Part shown: positions 3,327 to 24,687 of the stretch, one piece after another | How positions within the stretch are numbered: the stretch's first letter is position 1 | How the letters are laid out: every line of letters begins with the position of its first letter | Assembly (NCBI GenBank): GCA_043823745.1 | Contig: JBDRAN010000056.1 | Span: 5,144-69,143 of the forward strand | Direction of reading: 5' to 3' | DNA length: 64,000 nt | Source: Candidatus Omnitrophota bacterium | GTDB lineage: Bacteria > Omnitrophota > Gorgyraeia > Duberdicusellales > 4484-171 | The notes under the pieces: generated by a model | What the model saw: the letters and a program-made list of their open reading frames with translations, nothing else | The model's database searches: none | Told to the model about the DNA's origin: nothing | Program-made: the position numbers and the translations under genes

Positions 3327-4598
3327 CTACAGCTTCTTATTGAGTTCCCTCACAAAATTCTTTATTTCCCAGAATTCTTTAAATGTATGTTGCTGGAAAG
3401 AGCCGAAGATAGAATTGTTATGAAGAAGCGGTTCGTTGAACTCCTTGCCGTAATGTTCAAAGAGCGGCGTATCCGGAACGGGTGAGAATTCTGCCAGGGA
3501 TACCTTCAAGCCCAGCGCGATCAGGAAGAGCACATCTTCTTTTAACCGGACCAGATCTTGTCCGGGATAACCTAAAAGTAAATATACACTTGCCTCTCCG
3601 TTTTTAAAGCCACCTTGTTTTAGGTGAGCTGCGCCTTTTATTACGTCATGATGATCTATTTTGTCTCCCCAAAGTTTTTGTAACTCTGGGTCAAGTGTCT
3701 CAAGGCCAAAATGAGGATTGGTAAAACCTGATGTTTTTAAGAGGGAGGCTATCTCATCGTCGAGAAAGCGCATATGGAGAGCATTCGGCGTATGGAAGCG
3801 AATGCCAAGCTTTGCCGCGGTGATGTTTCGCAATAAGGATTTCGCGTAATCAGATTCATAGAGAAATGCGTCATCGTAGAGCACATAGTCACGCACCCCT
3901 TTTCTGCAATAGCCGCTGATATAATCGATTATTGAGGCCTGCGGCATTTGCAAAAAGGTGCCCGGGAAAAGTTTTCTTATTGCGCAGAAGCTGCAATTAA
4001 ATGGACACCCCCAGGAAGTTCTTAAGACCACATAGTCAAGTGTCTGGTAAAATTCTTCATAGCGGGGTAGTGTTGTGTAGAGGTCCCGTGGTTGACAGGT
4101 AATTCCCAGGTACGTGAAGAATTCTTCTATCTGGTTGTTCGCAAAAACACGGTCATATAAGGTGTTATGCGCCGCGTGGTCATTGCAGAGCGTTGCGTAG
4201 GTGCCGCCCAAAAGTATTTTTGCCGCCGGAAATTTTTCTTTTACCAGCCGTGCCGCTTCAATGATGCCGGGATACCAATAGGTCATCGATGAGGTAATAA
4301 GAATATAGTCGGGGTTTTTGCCCTCAAGGGCAGCCTTAAAAACATCACGATTGATGCCGTATCGTTTATAATGGCGGGGGATTGTCTTAAAGATTCCAGG
4401 CTTTTCTACAATCACGCAAGCGTATTTGCCTCTGCCGAAGTCGCCGGCGCTGGTCTTTTTATCGAGACAGTCAATATAATCAACATGGATGCCCTGGTTC
4501 TTTAAATACTCAAGAATCACTAAAAAACCGTAGGGTTTCAGCCAAAAATCATAGGCGGCAAAGTCGTATATCCAGGGGTTTATGGCGAGTATATTCAC
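3327..4598 (-). CDS. B12-binding-domain radical SAM protein (probable GTG start).
   Basis: N-terminal cobalamin-binding Rossmann-like region (ILITSSMTYW...ILLGG) followed by WGCPFNCSFC (CxxxCxxC). Confidence 0.8.
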   Translation of the reverse strand: MNILAINPWIYDFAAYDFWLKPYGFLVILEYLKNQGIHVDYIDCLDKKTSAGDFGRGKYACVIVEKPGIFKTIPRHYKRYGINRDVFKAALEGKNPDYILITSSMTYWYPGIIEAARLVKEKFPAAKILLGGTYATLCNDHAAHNTLYDRVFANNQIEEFFTYLGITCQPRDLYTTLPRYEEFYQTLDYVVLRTSWGCPFNCSFCAIRKLFPGTFLQMPQASIIDYISGYCRKGVRDYVLYDDAFLYESDYAKSLLRNITAAKLGIRFHTPNALHMRFLDDEIASLLKTSGFTNPHFGLETLDPELQKLWGDKIDHHDVIKGAAHLKQGGFKNGEASVYLLLGYPGQDLVRLKEDVLFLIALGLKVSLAEFSPVPDTPLFEHYGKEFNEPLLHNNSIFGSFQQHTFKEFWEIKNFVRELNKKL

Positions 4599-4750
4599 TA
4601 AATCATTATAGCAGATGTGGTATAATAAAAAAGCGGATAGCGGTTAGCGAATAGCGAATAGTAAAGAATGTGTAATTTTTCAATTTTTTAACTAACCGCT
4701 ATACGGTGCGAAGCCTCCCCGGAGGGGACTCAACACTCTACGCTATTCAT

Positions 4751-5737
4751 ATGGTAGAAGAACTTTTCGATAAGACAATTCGTGATCACCACATGCTTGC
4801 GCGTAAGGATCGAGTTATCCTTGGTGTCTCAGGGGGGCCTGACTCTGTGTGCATGCTCAAGCAGTTCGTGCGCATAAAGGGTGAATATAAATGTGCCCTG
4901 GTGTGCGCGCATTTTAATCATAGTTTAAGGCCCCAAGCTGATGCGGAGGAAGCGTTTGTCAAAGAGCTCTGCAAGGAACTCGGAGTTACGTTTACCAGCG
5001 AGAAAAAAGATGTGCAGAAGCTTTATCGAGGCGATTCATTAGAACAGTCAGCGAGGAATTTACGTTTTGATTTTTTTGTGCGTGTTGCTCACGAGCATAA
5101 GGCAAAAAAGCTTGCGCTCGCACATCATAAAGACGATGTGGTCGAAACAACTCTGATGCGTATTATTCGGGGTACCGCGCTTCGGGGGCTTCGCGGGATT
5201 CTACCTGTAACAAAGATACGTGGCCTTGCGGTAATCAGACCCCTTCTTGCTATCCGTAAAGACGAGATACTCCAGTGGCTTGAAATTCATAAGGTACCGT
5301 ATATGCTTGATGACAGTAACCTCGAAGATAAGTTTTTCAGAAATAAAATCAGGCTTAACCTGCTTCCCCAGCTTACGCAGTTTAACCCCAACATTAGCGG
5401 AGCTCTTTTTAACTTGGCGCGTCTGGCTGCGCTTGATTATGAGTGTATTCGTCGTTTCACCAAAGAAAAATATGAGCGTCTCAAAAAACAAAAAGGCCGC
5501 CACTATATTAAACTTTCTTTGGCGCAATTGGCCTCTGAGCCCGAGGCTATGCTGCTTAATATCATGCGGTTTGCCATCGAGGAGCTTAAGGGGGATACAC
5601 GTAAGCTCGAATTGCGGCATCTTGAAGAAATTATGGATTTAATCCGGCATAGACCCAACTATAGCATCGTCGATTTACCTGATTTAGAGGTAAAAAAAGA
5701 AGAGCATTGGCTTGTTATCAAGTCCTTGCTTTTTTAA
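4751..5737 (+). CDS. tilS: tRNA(Ile)-lysidine synthetase.
   Basis: PP-loop SGGPDS (VILGVSGGPDSVCML). The in-frame ORF opens at 4706; an ATG at 4751 is the preferred start. Confidence 0.8.
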   Translation: MVEELFDKTIRDHHMLARKDRVILGVSGGPDSVCMLKQFVRIKGEYKCALVCAHFNHSLRPQADAEEAFVKELCKELGVTFTSEKKDVQKLYRGDSLEQSARNLRFDFFVRVAHEHKAKKLALAHHKDDVVETTLMRIIRGTALRGLRGILPVTKIRGLAVIRPLLAIRKDEILQWLEIHKVPYMLDDSNLEDKFFRNKIRLNLLPQLTQFNPNISGALFNLARLAALDYECIRRFTKEKYERLKKQKGRHYIKLSLAQLASEPEAMLLNIMRFAIEELKGDTRKLELRHLEEIMDLIRHRPNYSIVDLPDLEVKKEEHWLVIKSLLF

Positions 5738-5832
5738 CATATTTGATTATAATACCTTCTACTTGCGTATACGTATCATGGCTCGATAGGTTTGCTTTTT
5801 CAATCCACCGATATATTGTCAAACTCCTTTAG

Positions 5833-12057: not shown

Positions 12058-12130
12058 GCTGGCGTAGCTCAGTTGGCAGAGCAGAGGTTTTGTAAACCTC
12101 AGGTTGGGGGTTCGATTCCTCTCGCCAGCT
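12058..12130 (+). tRNA. tRNA-Thr (anticodon UGU).
   Basis: Manual cloverleaf: acceptor GCTGGCG/CGCCAGC, D-arm GCTC..GAGC, anticodon arm GAGGT-TTTGTAA-ACCTC, T-loop TTCGATT. No encoded CCA. Confidence 0.8.
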
Positions 12131-12248
12131 TAATTTCAAAAACGAAGGACGCTCATCCACATACGTTCATTGGGACGTGGGACGTTCGTTTGCTGGCCGC
12201 TACGGGGTCGTTTTTATTTTCAATACGTCTATCTCACGGAATAATGAA

Positions 12249-12599
12249 ATGGAAATCTTAAAGAAATTATTCGAAATAGCGCTCATTCCCATTACTTATT
12301 TTGCTGGCGTGCAAAGAGGAAAATTTAATAAAAATAAAGAAAAGATAGTCTTGATTGCGCAGAATTACGTTAATCTTTTGCGACAACATAATTATGATGT
12401 ATATCAATACCCCGACGTTTTGCTTGCAGCGGGGATTCTTACTTTGTCTGAGATGAAAGATATTAACCAAGTAATAGATATTGTTGTAAGTAAATATGGA
12501 GTAGAGCACCCATTTAAAAACTATTCGGAAGTTTTAAAAAGTGACAATACTGTTTTAGACTTCTTTAAGAATTTGGTTAACAAATCAAGAGAAAATTAA
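12249..12599 (+). CDS. Hypothetical protein, first gene of the AT-rich island (a GTG at 12177 is an alternative start).
   Basis: ORF in a roughly 33% GC stretch immediately downstream of tRNA-Thr. Confidence 0.35.
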   Translation: MEILKKLFEIALIPITYFAGVQRGKFNKNKEKIVLIAQNYVNLLRQHNYDVYQYPDVLLAAGILTLSEMKDINQVIDIVVSKYGVEHPFKNYSEVLKSDNTVLDFFKNLVNKSREN

Positions 12600-12700: not shown

Positions 12701-12940
12701 ATGAAAAAAGCTTTGTTGAATGAGCTAAAAATATTTGGTGTTTGGGTAGGAATATATTTAATACTAATGGTGATCCTTGTTTTTCTTGCTGTAATTAAAT
12801 TTCCATCAGAGCAATTTGTGAGAGGATTTTCCAGTATCTTGCCCATTGTTTTGATGCTATATTTACCGTATATTGTTATTAAGTGCGTAATCTTGCTTTG
12901 TAAATATTTGGCTAAAGGTCAAAATAAAAAGATATTATAA
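12701..12940 (+). CDS. Small membrane protein with two TM helices (hypothetical).
   Basis: 79-aa ORF with two hydrophobic helices, AT-rich. Confidence 0.35.
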   Translation: MKKALLNELKIFGVWVGIYLILMVILVFLAVIKFPSEQFVRGFSSILPIVLMLYLPYIVIKCVILLCKYLAKGQNKKIL

Positions 12941-12964: not shown

Positions 12965-13621
12965 ATGAATTTAACGGCAAAACTGAATCCTCAAGAAATT
13001 AGAGATTTATATTGGGAGAAAAAACATAGCGTGGAGGAGGTTGCAGAGAAATTAGGCATTTCTGTTTGGGCATTATATAATTTTATGAATAGAAATGGAA
13101 TCCCGAGGCGTTCTTTGACAGAGGCTAATTATATTGCTAATCGAGATAAACCACAATTTGCAATCAGAGACGATCTTAGCATTACAGAAGAAAAACTTAA
13201 AATAGCCGGTATTATGATGTATTGGGCTGAAGGAACTTTAAAAGGAAACTCGGTTGACTTTGTGAATAGTAATCCGGACATGGTAAGGATATTCCTAAAA
13301 TTCTTAAGAGCAATATGCGGGATAAAAGAGGAACGCTTAAGGGTCTATCTGTACGCGTATTCTTATCAAAGTATCGAAACGTTGAAACGCTATTGGGGTA
13401 AAGTAACAAATATTTCTTTGAGTCAATTTACTAAACCATACATCAGGGAAGGTAATTTGAATTTAAGTCAAAGAAAAATGCTTTATGGCTTAGTGCATAT
13501 TCGTTATAATGATAAACGTTTATTAAATCTGATTAAGGATTGGATAGCTGAGTATATAGAAGGGCAGGTTCCTGAGTGGTCAAAAGGGACAGACTGTGTA
13601 ATTAACGCAGCGCCCTGTTGA
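12965..13621 (+). CDS. Putative homing-endonuclease-like protein: N-terminal HTH plus a degenerate LAGLIDADG-like core (KIAGIMMYWAEGTL).
   Basis: HTH motif EIRDLYWEKKHSVEEVAEKLGISVWALYNFM. It is followed by a LAGLIDADG-like motif and an I-CreI-like secondary pattern. It ends 20 nt before the group I intron-like core. Confidence 0.45.
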   Translation: MNLTAKLNPQEIRDLYWEKKHSVEEVAEKLGISVWALYNFMNRNGIPRRSLTEANYIANRDKPQFAIRDDLSITEEKLKIAGIMMYWAEGTLKGNSVDFVNSNPDMVRIFLKFLRAICGIKEERLRVYLYAYSYQSIETLKRYWGKVTNISLSQFTKPYIREGNLNLSQRKMLYGLVHIRYNDKRLLNLIKDWIAEYIEGQVPEWSKGTDCVINAAPC

Positions 13622-13920
13622 AAAACAGGATGTAAAAGCGGGTGAATTCAGGGAAGCCCAGCACTAATTTAAAACTTTGAATTAGGTTAGTAAAATTAGT
13701 GCTGGGTAATCCTGAGCCAAGCTTTGGCATAACGCCAGAGAAGGTGCAGAGACTATTCCGTAAGGAAGTAGCTTCAGTTATTCTGGAGCGAAGCGCCCGC
13801 CGCCTAACGCCAGGTTATTAATGGCTATGGTGATGAGATAGTCCAAGCCTTAAGGTAACTTAAGGGACACTTGAAATCTGTTGCGCTTGCGCTTCGAGGG
13901 TTCAAATCCTTCCCTGCCCA
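13622..13920 (+). ncRNA. Group I intron-like ribozyme core (R element GGTGCAGAGACTATTCCG 13743-13760; S element AGATAGTCC 13836-13844; 14-bp hairpin 13657-13706). It runs into a tRNA-like 3' exon (T-arm GAGGG-TTCAAAT-CCTTC, acceptor 3' strand CCTGCCC, discriminator A at 13920).
   Basis: The P7 halves GACTA/TAGTC are complementary and sit in the classic R/S contexts. A sense-strand T-loop and acceptor follow. No 5' exon could be located. Confidence 0.4.
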
Positions 13921-14203
13921 TGTTTATTATTCTTAAGGTAGTGAAGGTTCTCCCGCCTCACAACAACGCCTAAAATTTTCTCTGAAAATTTTAGGCGTTC
14001 GGCGGGATCAATTCGACTACATGTTTTTTCTTCACCCTTGGCTTAAAAAAACATAAGTCTCATTGAAAATCCTTCCCTGCCCATGTTTTTTGATAAATTT
14101 GAAGAGCTATCAGCTCACAGCTTTCAGCCCTCAGCTTAAAGGATAAATTTATTTATGCTGATAGCTGAAGACTGATAGCTGAGAGCTGACATTTTTTTGA
14201 CTT

Positions 14204-14274
14204 GCGGGCGTAGTTCAATGGCAGAACACTAGCCTTCCAAGCTGGATATGTCGGTTCGATCCCGATCGCCCGCT
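14204..14274 (+). tRNA. tRNA-Gly (anticodon UCC).
   Basis: Acceptor GCGGGCG/CGCCCGC, anticodon loop CTTCCAA, T-loop TTCGATC. Confidence 0.85.
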
Positions 14275-14333
14275 TATAATGAGACTGTGATTTTTTAAGC
14301 CGTAGGTGAAGAAAAATCACATAGTCGAATTAT

Positions 14334-14408
14334 CCCCGTTTTTGCACCCGATAGATTCCCTCGCAATTTCTTGAAATTGCGAAAAGATCAATGGAGGCAA
14401 AAACGGGG
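14334..14408 (+). ncRNA. Copy A of a conserved hairpin element: outer stem CCCCGTTTTTGC/GCAAAAACGGGG, inner hairpin CGCAATTTC-tt-GAAATTGCG. It lies 17 nt upstream of the gpsA ATG.
   Basis: One of three copies (A, B, C). The outer stem covaries in copy C. Confidence 0.5.
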
Positions 14409-24004: not shown

Positions 24005-24687
24005 ACGGACTTCCGAAGCTGATTATTAACTTTCGTTTTTCGGAAGCTCTAAAATTACTATAATTATACCTAGCGAGCCCCATTCCTATGGGGCGAAGCA
24101 TCCCGACGAATACCTTAAAAATATGGAACAGATTTTTAAGAGTGTGTATGAGTCGGGATGTTAACAATATTCTAAACTATTGGGCGTTTGAAACTTATTG
24201 TTAGTGTTTCCTTTTCTGAAGTCCTAAAATTACTATAACTATACCTATAAAGCGATTATTGTCAAGTAAAATCTACCATTTTAGCGATTTTAGCGATTCA
24301 GGGGTTGATGGTGTCTCCTGAGACGGTAAAAATATACCTCACGCACGATTATTAAATAAATTACACCATCGCTAAAAAACTAATAAAATCAAGGCTGGAA
24401 ACGATTTCAAAGAACGCCGCCGGCCGTCTTGAAAAGGCGCGGGCAAGATGGTATCTTTAAGCTTGGATACAAAAGGTTCTTTCAAAAAACGTAATCCTAA
24501 TACCGATAAGAGCAAACTCCGCGAAAGCGGAGGGCGGTGCGCGTGTCGTCTGATGCGGCGCGTACCCACGAACCTGTATTTACCCTAAACCACAGGTGTG
24601 GTTTAGGGGCATGGTTTGTGGCAAAGCTACAAGAGCCTAATGCCCGCAAGGGCTACGGTAGTCAGCTGCCGAAGAGTGGATTTATTA

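Follow-up and report, generated by a model that had tools for sequence, protein, structure and literature searches.

We find that a 64,000-nucleotide (nt) stretch of a Candidatus Omnitrophota metagenome-assembled genome (MAG; assembly GCA_043823745.1, contig JBDRAN010000056.1), hereafter the window, holds at positions 13562–13920 a complete tRNA-Tyr(GUA) gene in which a group I intron separates anticodon positions 35 and 36. The 5' end of this gene is overlapped by a 218-amino acid (aa) open reading frame (ORF; 12965–13621), which encodes a putative homing endonuclease with helix-turn-helix (HTH) and LAGLIDADG-like parts, as judged from the list of ORFs, 623 homologues, and an AlphaFold model. 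In Omnitrophota, Patescibacteria, and other uncultured bacteria, relatives of this ORF always sit tightly beside tRNA genes, and phage tRNA arrays contain them too. The gene abuts the tRNA, is compositionally foreign, has moved recently, decays, and carries a DNA-binding module of the endonuclease type. From these comparisons, the free-standing endonuclease-like gene and the intron, which has no ORF of its own, probably form a co-mobile cassette. Coordinates are those of the window unless a locus is named, and the tRNA genes, the main ORF, the intron, and the riboswitch aptamer described here are on the + strand.

The 5' exon of the tRNA-Tyr gene (13562–13597) provides the acceptor strand GGGCAGG, the D-arm, the 5' strand of the anticodon stem, and nucleotides C32, U33, G34, and U35, and it lies directly upstream of the intron. 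The 3' exon (13874–13920) resumes with A36, A37, and A38 and completes the anticodon stem with its 3' strand; then come a long variable arm, the T-arm (GAGGG-TTCAAAT-CCTTC), the acceptor strand (CCTGCCC), and the discriminator A73 at 13920, after which CCA is not encoded. The variable arm UGCGCUUGCGCUUC and A73, read from the sequence, give the class II architecture of bacterial tRNA-Tyr. An earlier sequence-only reading of this DNA, made by a model, had described the T-arm, acceptor strand, and discriminator just as we find them; it had seen no 5' half in continuity, and it proposed an intron-interrupted tRNA or tRNA-like gene with a distant or degenerate 5' exon, or a homing remnant. A genuine group I intron in a tRNA gene is upheld, and the distant exon, the tRNA-like fragment, and the remnant fall, as the tRNA-Tyr(GUA) gene is complete and its splicing in silico gives an 83-nt tRNA without gaps relative to intact genes.

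The splice junction was identified by splicing every combination of nearby junctions in silico and calling the products with ARAGORN. The sole accepted junction (7-nt anticodon loop, 83-nt product) with a U at the end of the 5' exon and a G at the end of the intron is U13597|A13874, and its product is called tRNA-Tyr(gta). Independently of the junction chosen with ARAGORN, U13597 carries the conserved splice-site U of the RF00028 alignment. The spliced product aligns with an uninterrupted metagenomic tRNA-Tyr (L101) over 83/83 nt, gapless and with 90% identity. Other junctions would yield Ser(UGA), Ser(GGA), Phe, or Leu anticodons, but these break the rule of a U before the 5' splice site or a G before the 3' splice site, or result in abnormal loops, and we rejected them on these grounds. 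In its default mode, ARAGORN reports no tRNA-Tyr at 13562–13920, and its intron mode mislabels several orthologues in related loci (among L001–L030) as Ser, Phe, or Asp; these labels are artefacts, because the intron is placed differently. As standard tRNA finders miss the split tRNA-Tyr, genomes of this clade would seem to have no tRNA-Tyr in routine annotation.

The 3' end of the tRNA-Tyr gene is also part of a 22-nt exact direct repeat (25 nt at 96%), with copies at 13904–13928 and 14067–14091, 163 nt apart. The repeat comprises the tRNA 3' end and 5–8 nt past it, is absent from the closest relative of the window (L222), and is either att-like or what is left, as an orphan, of the 3' end of a tRNA copy that was replaced.

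The intron is 276 nt long (13598–13873) and contains no ORF. The group I core proposed in the sequence-only reading is recovered by the covariance model RF00028, which matches 13588–13865 over its full length (model positions 1–253) with 87.7 bits (E = 5e-21), far beyond chance and well over the gathering score, which is 50; the related loci that were tested score between 45.6 and 113 bits. P1 is formed by exon CUGU (13594–13597) and the internal guide GCAG (13607–13610), with a U13597-G13607 wobble pair, and is followed by P2 (13614–13629, with a GAAA loop), P3 (13638–13644 with 13794–13800), P4 (13648–13653 with 13710–13715), an extended P5 (13657–13670 with 13693–13706), and P6 (13716–13745). 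P7 pairs 13751–13755 with 13839–13843 (GACTA/TAGTC), and an extra element of ~36 nt (13756–13791) lies between P7 and P3', with P8 (~13803–13831), P9 (13848–13865), and the terminal G (omega-G, 13873) completing the structure. The R-like element GGTGCAGAGACTATTCCG at 13743–13760 and the S-like element AGATAGTCC at 13836–13844, together with their complementary P7 halves, read as had been stated from the letters alone, and correspond to J6/7 plus the P7 5' strand and to J8/7 plus the P7 3' strand, respectively. The perfect 14-bp hairpin at 13657–13706 exists as well, and what had been taken for a peripheral stem is the extended P5, which is common to the window, L004, and L009. The ~36-nt element is found in the window, L009, and L013, while most relatives are without it; IA introns have P7.1/P7.2 at this place.

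We gathered 39 introns at the same site from related loci, and 38 of these were aligned to an explicit P1–P9 structure with the P3/P7 pseudoknot. All 39 are preceded by CUGU, end in a terminal G, and are followed by AAAUC or AAACC, so the insertion site is identical. Across the alignment, 94.1% of cells form pairs, compared with 33–52% when partners are slid by 1–3 columns, and compensatory changes are present in 36 of 58 pairs, with 0 of 500 shuffles reaching the observed score. P1 (exon CUGU with guide GCAG) is intact in 38/38 introns. The pair that extends P1—i.e. the first intron base with the base before GCAG—is G-C in 14 cases, A-U in 12, C-G in 3, G-U in 3, and U-A in 2, with 5 mismatches. 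P7 (GACUA/UAGUC) is invariant, which makes covariation there uninformative either way, and most members show no evident P10 pairing of the 3' exon with the guide region. These patterns indicate that the intron core is under clear structural selection, and the pre-tRNA is thus expected to self-splice.

The start of the ORF precedes exon 1 by 597 nt and the first base of the intron by 633 nt. Because it lies 5' of exon 1, it is free-standing and not intron-encoded. It does not end 20 nt upstream, as had been read from the sequence alone; rather, its final 60 nt (13562–13621) overlap the 5' exon, P1, and the P2 loop, in which the TGA stop codon is located. The conserved core of the ORF comprises residues 1–~200 (12965–13564), and homologues are conserved only up to ~W193-I-x-E-Y197. 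Beyond this point, the C-terminal tails of homologues (GQVPEWSKGTDC, WAGTQVAKGDRL, and GRYPSGQRGQTV) are the tRNA-Tyr 5' half translated in three frames, and in the AlphaFold model (mean predicted local distance difference test score, pLDDT, of 84), residues 202–218 are disordered. We considered and rejected a conserved peptide as the explanation for the overlap, since all three frames are used across loci and the modelled tail is disordered. As such, the overlap is geometric and not coding, and residues 202–218 are incidental read-through. An identical protein is annotated as a "hypothetical protein" of a Candidatus Omnitrophota MAG.

To define the genomic setting of the family, we picked 80 loci by protein alone, with one genome per species. 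In 77 of these, the conserved core ends 1–76 nt (mostly 6–25 nt) before the first base of a same-strand tRNA, and the stop codon lies between 44 nt ahead of that base and 107 nt past it. The chance expectation for such abutment is 0.55% per locus, which is a generous estimate. The remaining three loci (L068, L071, and L072) lie 10–25 nt downstream of tRNA-Arg(CCT), and two seeming exceptions fit the rule, as the contig of L024 ends inside the intron and L032 has masked N-runs. The three downstream loci (L068:3740–4390, L071:985–1635, and L072:3803–4441) represent a sub-family that precedes a shikimate-kinase-like gene in Margulisiibacteriota and unclassified MAGs.

The tRNA partner differs among lineages. 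Loci L001–L030, from Omnitrophota and relatives, have tRNA-Thr(TGT), the ORF, an intron-split tRNA-Tyr, and then tRNA-Gly(TCC) where the contig extends. In loci L031–L067, mostly from Patescibacteria, the ORF adjoins a tRNA-Tyr that is split in 6 loci and intact in 31, and in L068–L080 homologues are located beside Arg, Lys, Val, Trp, Ser, and Gln tRNAs. Overall, at least 10 different tRNA species adjoin family members. Among viral contigs of IMG/VR, 20 of 21 homologues are ≤400 nt from tRNA genes, many of them inside arrays with as many as 27 tRNAs. A tblastn search of the 50,697 annotated phage genomes in INPHARED gave no match, and thus no annotation that could be transferred. In many loci, the start codon of the ORF is just 7–20 nt past tRNA-Thr, and a scan for promoters and terminators gave background values (8 promoter-like sites compared with 6.9 expected). 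Since most loci have no room for a promoter or terminator of its own, the ORF is presumably co-transcribed with the tRNA array.

Several observations indicate that the ORF has moved. Its GC content is 33.8%, compared with 46–48% for the window and the flanking genes. The arrangement without the ORF is visible in a second, tRNA-side sample, for which metagenomes were scanned with a 31-nt Omnitrophota-type tRNA-Tyr 5' exon, blind to both ORF and intron (120 loci). The commonest layout in this sample is Thr-Tyr-Gly (61 loci), with a median Thr-to-Tyr spacer of 51 nt in intronless loci, and by this comparison Thr-Tyr-Gly with a short spacer is the ancestral layout. The window has the two neighbours of that array, tRNA-Thr(TGT) at 12058–12130 (ARAGORN; Rfam tRNA, 67.5 bits) upstream and tRNA-Gly(TCC) at 14204–14274 (ARAGORN; Rfam) downstream. 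Decayed copies of the ORF also exist. For example, a premature stop replaces the Y of LYWAEG in L032 (4013–4660), and in L200, where the Thr-Tyr spacer is 383 nt, an in-frame deletion of residues ~72–153 has removed the putative catalytic core and kept the HTH and the C-terminus. The place of the ORF is taken by an AT-rich, non-coding spacer of 183 nt in L165 and by a clean 12-nt spacer in L155. The introns of these two loci share a distinctive P6a extension with those of ORF-bearing loci L003, L005, and L016, and the presence of the ORF thus varies among close relatives of the intron.

Two loci, the closest relatives of the window, suggest how the insertion took place. In both L222 (2192–2216) and L009 (3953–3981), an exact copy of nt 1–25 of tRNA-Tyr (GGGCAGGTTCCTGAGTGGTCAAAAG) lies 7–10 nt upstream of the ATG and departs from the tRNA exactly after position 25. 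In these loci the ORF is bracketed by a 25-nt direct repeat, made up of this orphan copy and of the 5' end of the functional tRNA, located where the ORF has its 3' end; this looks like an insertion of the ORF plus a fresh tRNA 5' segment at tRNA position 25/26.

The comparison of the window with L222 also informs on the age of the arrangement. The ORF products are 88% identical in aa, and identity at third positions of conserved residues is 0.80; for the flanking genes Carb_kinase and GpsA, the respective values are 68% and 72.5% in aa and 0.48 and 0.42 at third positions. Identity is 100% for the 5' exon, 81.6% for the intron, and 93.6% for the 3' exon, and the Tyr-to-Gly spacer is unalignable (46.6%); similarity stops at the tRNA 3' end. 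Because the synonymous divergence of the ORF is far below that of the flanking genes, the block made of ORF, tRNA, and intron is, by these measures, much younger than the surrounding chromosomes.

The tRNA repeats could alternatively be att-like sequences or target duplications made by a recombinase or transposase, rather than by-products of break repair, in which case the ORF would be the enzyme of a small insertion element that targets tRNAs. The 25-nt repeat that brackets the ORF in L222 and L009 and the 22-nt repeat of the tRNA 3' end in the window are both compatible with such an element, and the HTH resembles transposase and resolvase families (HTH_23, HTH_7, HTH_Tnp_1, and the Sleeping Beauty PAI subdomain). 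Yet no transposase, integrase, or serine/tyrosine recombinase domain is found with Pfam, NCBIfam, PHROGs, or a fold search, the repeats are missing in most lineages, and LAGLIDADG folds seem to be the best match for the 130-aa putative catalytic domain. No terminal inverted repeats were noted around the ORF, where no dedicated search across the cassette boundaries was made. We therefore regard a recombinase as unlikely, even if it is the explanation that fares best among the alternatives to homing.

The two parts of the ORF product were characterized separately. The N-terminal HTH module (residues ~9–59; 12989–13141) is recognized by Pfam, PHROG, and PDB profile matches. It had been noticed already in the sequence-only reading and holds up in the family, being weak and sub-threshold in the protein of the window and clear in relatives (Pfam HTH_23, 3e-07; HTH_7, 2e-06). 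This HTH matches the DNA-binding modules of phage "HNH endonuclease" PHROGs (phrog_8446, 1.2e-08; phrog_7545, 5.5e-10), which are matched in 17 and 14 of 28 family members, respectively. Sequence and profile searches of the PDB match HTH proteins only, and the profile matches include HTH domains of the transposase type (Sleeping Beauty PAI subdomain and IS5376 transposase).

The C-terminal part is a single LAGLIDADG-like domain (residues ~73–201; 13181–13567), identified by motif conservation. The motif KIAGIMMYWAEGTL, which had been singled out from the sequence alone, is real and nearly invariant across the family. Specifically, (L/M)85-Y-W-A-E89-G90 (13217–13234) is near-invariant, with M at position 85 in the window, and N101-S-[ND]-P is conserved as well; in an alignment that reaches ~25% identity, residues Y86, E89, G90, N101, W144, and G175 are invariant. 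For the ~130 C-terminal residues, neither Pfam, NCBIfam, PHROGs, nor PADLOC has a curated family that matches, and the PDB has no matching sequence. No GIY-YIG domain is found in the family with Pfam, NCBIfam, or PHROGs, and hhalign gives no meaningful match to I-CreI. The canonical secondary-structure order of LAGLIDADG domains is alpha-beta-beta-alpha-beta-beta-alpha, and the order modelled for the ORF product (alpha-beta-alpha-beta-alpha-beta-beta-alpha) departs from it. A divergent LAGLIDADG-like domain with a preserved acidic residue (E89) is a plausible identity for this part.

Two smaller ORFs with 32% GC lie between tRNA-Thr and the endonuclease-like ORF, at 12246–12599 (117 aa) and 12701–12940 (79 aa); the latter product is probably membrane-spanning, and neither has a family match. 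When these two and the main ORF were searched with Pfam, NCBIfam, and PADLOC, only the weak HTH was recovered, and no LAGLIDADG or defence family. L222 is without the two small ORFs, and its Thr-to-ORF distance is 271 nt, compared with 834 nt in the window. This difference suggests that they arrived by another insertion at the same hotspot.

A DNA-binding module joined to a LAGLIDADG-like domain also brings to mind a host-domesticated protein similar to WhiA, with a role in regulating or organizing the tRNA operon and with vertical inheritance; the intron would then be an unrelated resident of the same gene. Such a role would agree with a family that is 60–70% identical across Omnitrophota, with an ORF always co-oriented with the tRNA whose 5' end it abuts, and with matched HTH families that include regulator types. 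It is at odds with the low synonymous divergence of the ORF relative to the flanking genes, with a GC content foreign to its surroundings, with its presence or absence among introns that share P6a and its deleted and stop-containing copies, and with homologues that lie in the tRNA arrays of phages and beside no fewer than 10 different tRNAs. To our knowledge, WhiA-type degenerate LAGLIDADG domains are without the acidic residue, which in the ORF family is invariant. Domestication thus appears slightly less probable still than a recombinase.

Within the tRNA-side sample, the ORF and the intron occur together in 4 loci, the ORF without the intron in none, the intron without the ORF in 2, and neither element in 106, with 8 loci undetermined (Fisher P = 2.4e-06). 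Both elements are also present in 30/30 of loci L001–L030. Among the ORF-bearing loci L031–L067, tRNA-Tyr is split in 5 of 37 (L032 was added later), compared with 1 of 95 complete Patescibacteria genomes (P = 0.007; PMC13011429). The intron is found without the ORF in L155 and L165, and the ORF without the intron in most Patescibacteria loci and in L033. Since intron-only and ORF-only loci both exist, the two elements are separable.

A further pairing, independent of the tRNA-Tyr loci, is found on a viral contig from IMG/VR (L221). There, a 169-aa homologue stops at 4510 and is followed from ~4524 by a tRNA-fMet-like gene, which is split at 33/34 by a group I intron (RF00028, 65 bits; 4001–4797 region). 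A second split tRNA, similar to tRNA-Lys(UUU) and with a group I intron of 67 bits (5520–5790 region), lies 1 kb downstream on the same contig. Both introns are inside tRNA genes of a putative phage tRNA array; according to a review from 2014, introns of phages were until then known from protein-coding genes alone.

The tight co-occurrence of ORF and intron in Omnitrophota-type loci could also be explained by a maturase that aids the folding or splicing of the tRNA-Tyr intron, and LAGLIDADG maturases are established for organellar group I introns. We consider this improbable, because most family members abut tRNAs without introns (31/37 in L031–L067, all of L068–L080, and most viral loci), introns persist in L155 and L165 where the ORF is absent, and the compact core with strong covariation is typical of self-sufficient tRNA introns. 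Least credible of all, and refuted by the coordinates, is a model along the lines of the sequence-only reading, in which a group I intron encodes its own LAGLIDADG endonuclease and interrupts a tRNA-like gene with a 5' exon that is far away, degenerate, or lost. The locus does have a group I intron, the 3' half of a tRNA, and a LAGLIDADG-like ORF next to them, but the 5' exon is contiguous at 13562–13597, the ORF lies 5' of exon 1 and the intron is without one, the spliced product is a normal tRNA-Tyr, and the intron core is under purifying structural selection.

A co-mobile cassette remains the reading we favour, and several points weigh against it. The duplicated tRNA 5' segment is found in two loci of the sub-lineage to which the window belongs and not in the window itself, and the other loci are indistinguishable from shuffled controls. 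The AT bias of the ORF partly inflates its third-position identity of 0.80, though it cannot account for all of it. The 106 loci with neither element may come largely from other phyla, and shared ancestry may thus explain part of the association between ORF and intron. Most ORF-bearing Patescibacteria loci and at least one locus labelled Omnitrophota (L033) have an intact tRNA-Tyr, meaning that the intron is not universally required for self-immunity. As for the LAGLIDADG-like ORF next to an intron that had been claimed from the sequence alone, its adjacency and motif hold, whereas none of 64 scans of family members (36 + 28, with the ORF of the window in both) matches Pfam LAGLIDADG_1/2/3, Hom_end, or LAGLIDADG_WhiA at E ≤ 1, an outcome that the sequence-only reading had itself named as a refutation. 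A Foldseek search against the PDB gave nothing significant, the top match being an OmpA-like protein (E = 5e-03). In favour of an endonuclease, the HTH matches the DNA-binding modules of phage homing endonucleases, and with hhalign the LYWAEGT of the family falls on the second, catalytic motif of I-DmoI (LYVAEGD; E = 0.004); the probability of this alignment is low, and its template sequence was entered by hand.

In the mechanism that we propose for such a cassette, the putative enzyme would cut the DNA of the tRNA gene, and repair of the break would copy the ORF into alleles without it. The intron, located 36 nt from the gene, could be carried along by simple co-conversion. Alternatively, in what is called collaborative homing, the intron would split the recognition site of the enzyme and so protect the chromosome that carries it. 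A candidate recognition site spans approximately tRNA positions 20–40: the junction of the duplication (25/26) and the site of the intron (35/36) are 10 nt apart, and both would therefore fit within one typical LAGLIDADG site of ~20 bp. Because loci with the ORF and without the intron exist, we favour simpler co-conversion, or target preferences that are specific to lineages. The cassette would bring its own copy of the tRNA 5' segment, and its insertion would thus leave a working tRNA. One may speculate that, with the stop codon located inside the tRNA, processing by RNase P would leave a message without a stop, which may keep expression low.

More broadly, the family could represent an unrecognized and widespread clade of single-domain LAGLIDADG-like free-standing homing endonucleases that are specialized on tRNA genes, insert in the 5' part of the tRNA with a replacement 5' segment, and mobilize in trans those group I introns that have no ORF, in the tRNA-Tyr of Omnitrophota and Patescibacteria and in a tRNA-fMet of a phage contig. 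We put this forward tentatively, as a proposal with somewhat less than even chances that extends the locus comparisons above. If true, mobilization in trans would explain the spread of many "endonuclease-less" bacterial tRNA introns and overturn the inference that these are immobile. In the window and about a hundred related loci, an endonuclease-like gene is found just outside the tRNA, and this gene, if active, would be the missing engine of mobility. An active enzyme would also represent a new, sequence-divergent branch of the LAGLIDADG superfamily, with practical interest as a source of rare-cutting nucleases, and the family would be a new one among the selfish genes that target tRNAs.

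Other features of the window were recorded near these genes and further downstream. The tRNA-Gly(TCC) gene is bracketed by a 51-nt inverted repeat (14003–14053 and 14288–14338) that is 80% complementary and possibly represents a miniature inverted-repeat transposable element (MITE)-like or other repeat element, and a perfect 16-bp hairpin (13965–13999) lies just upstream. A c-di-GMP-I riboswitch aptamer is located at 24598–24673 (RF01051, 40.6 bits compared with a gathering score of 35).

The closest published parallel for the intron is the work of Nakagawa et al. (2026, mSystems; PMC13011429), who describe group I introns at 35/36 of Patescibacteria tRNA genes, with a mean length of 257 bp, and who show that the Asn and Asp examples splice themselves in vitro. 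At 35/36, they assign 25 of 28 introns to IA; one is in tRNA-Tyr(GUA) (GCA_016699995.1), and their Omnitrophota entry is an IC3 intron in tRNA-fMet. The intron of the window shares with these the 35/36 site and the compact, ORF-less size class, and differs in its host phylum, Omnitrophota, and in its presence in the tRNA-Tyr of dozens of genomes. As such, it is a further member of the same kind of intron in another phylum. In that study, endonuclease genes were sought only inside introns (12/333), and adjacent free-standing genes were not considered; bacterial tRNA introns were inferred to be of limited mobility and to move rarely because they almost never carry an endonuclease gene (PMC13011429). 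Our literature search, which was not exhaustive, found no description of the ORF family, of its near-obligate abutment to tRNA 5' ends in bacterial chromosomes, or of a link between it and an ORF-less tRNA intron.

Among free-standing endonucleases, the nearest counterpart is SegB, a homing endonuclease of the GIY-YIG type from the tRNA clusters of T-even phages (Brok-Volchanskaya 2008; Chihara et al. 2026, PMC13096335) that lies beside tRNA-Tyr, cleaves within tRNA genes, and is widely co-localized with tRNAs of many isotypes (PMC13096335). Both are free-standing genes at tRNA-Tyr, and the ORF of this family overlaps the tRNA-Tyr 5' end with its 3' end. The ORF family differs from SegB in having no GIY-YIG domain, in being mainly chromosomal in Omnitrophota and Patescibacteria, in abutting the tRNA far more closely (1–76 nt), and in its link to a tRNA intron. 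The resemblance would be functional and positional only. Compared with I-CreI, I-DmoI, I-CeuI, and WhiA, the ORF product has no similarity at the level of hidden Markov models, its motif is LYWAEG and not LAGLIDADG, and it combines a single domain with an N-terminal HTH.

As cited in PMC3984707, I-Ssp6803I is a PD-(D/E)XK endonuclease encoded in a cyanobacterial tRNA-fMet intron (Bonocora and Shub 2001). On that account, the likeness to the window would lie in an endonuclease that targets the anticodon region of a tRNA and mobilizes a tRNA group I intron, and the difference in that I-Ssp6803I is intron-encoded and has another nuclease fold, whereas the gene of the window is outside the intron.

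Examples of collaborative homing reportedly include F-CphI with the psbA intron and mobE with I-TevIII. Such homing in trans by free-standing endonucleases is established for phage protein-coding genes (PMC3984707). The window resembles these pairs in that only tens of bases separate its ORF-less intron from the free-standing endonuclease-like gene, and in that the two are co-inherited and separable; that the recognition site coincides with the intron insertion site is, for the ORF of the window, conjecture. It differs from them in that its target is a tRNA gene in a bacterial chromosome, the protein belongs to another family, the ORF overlaps the tRNA, and a tRNA 5' duplication brackets the ORF in close relatives. 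If the enzyme is active, collaborative homing would be extended from phage protein-coding genes to the chromosomal tRNA genes of uncultured phyla.

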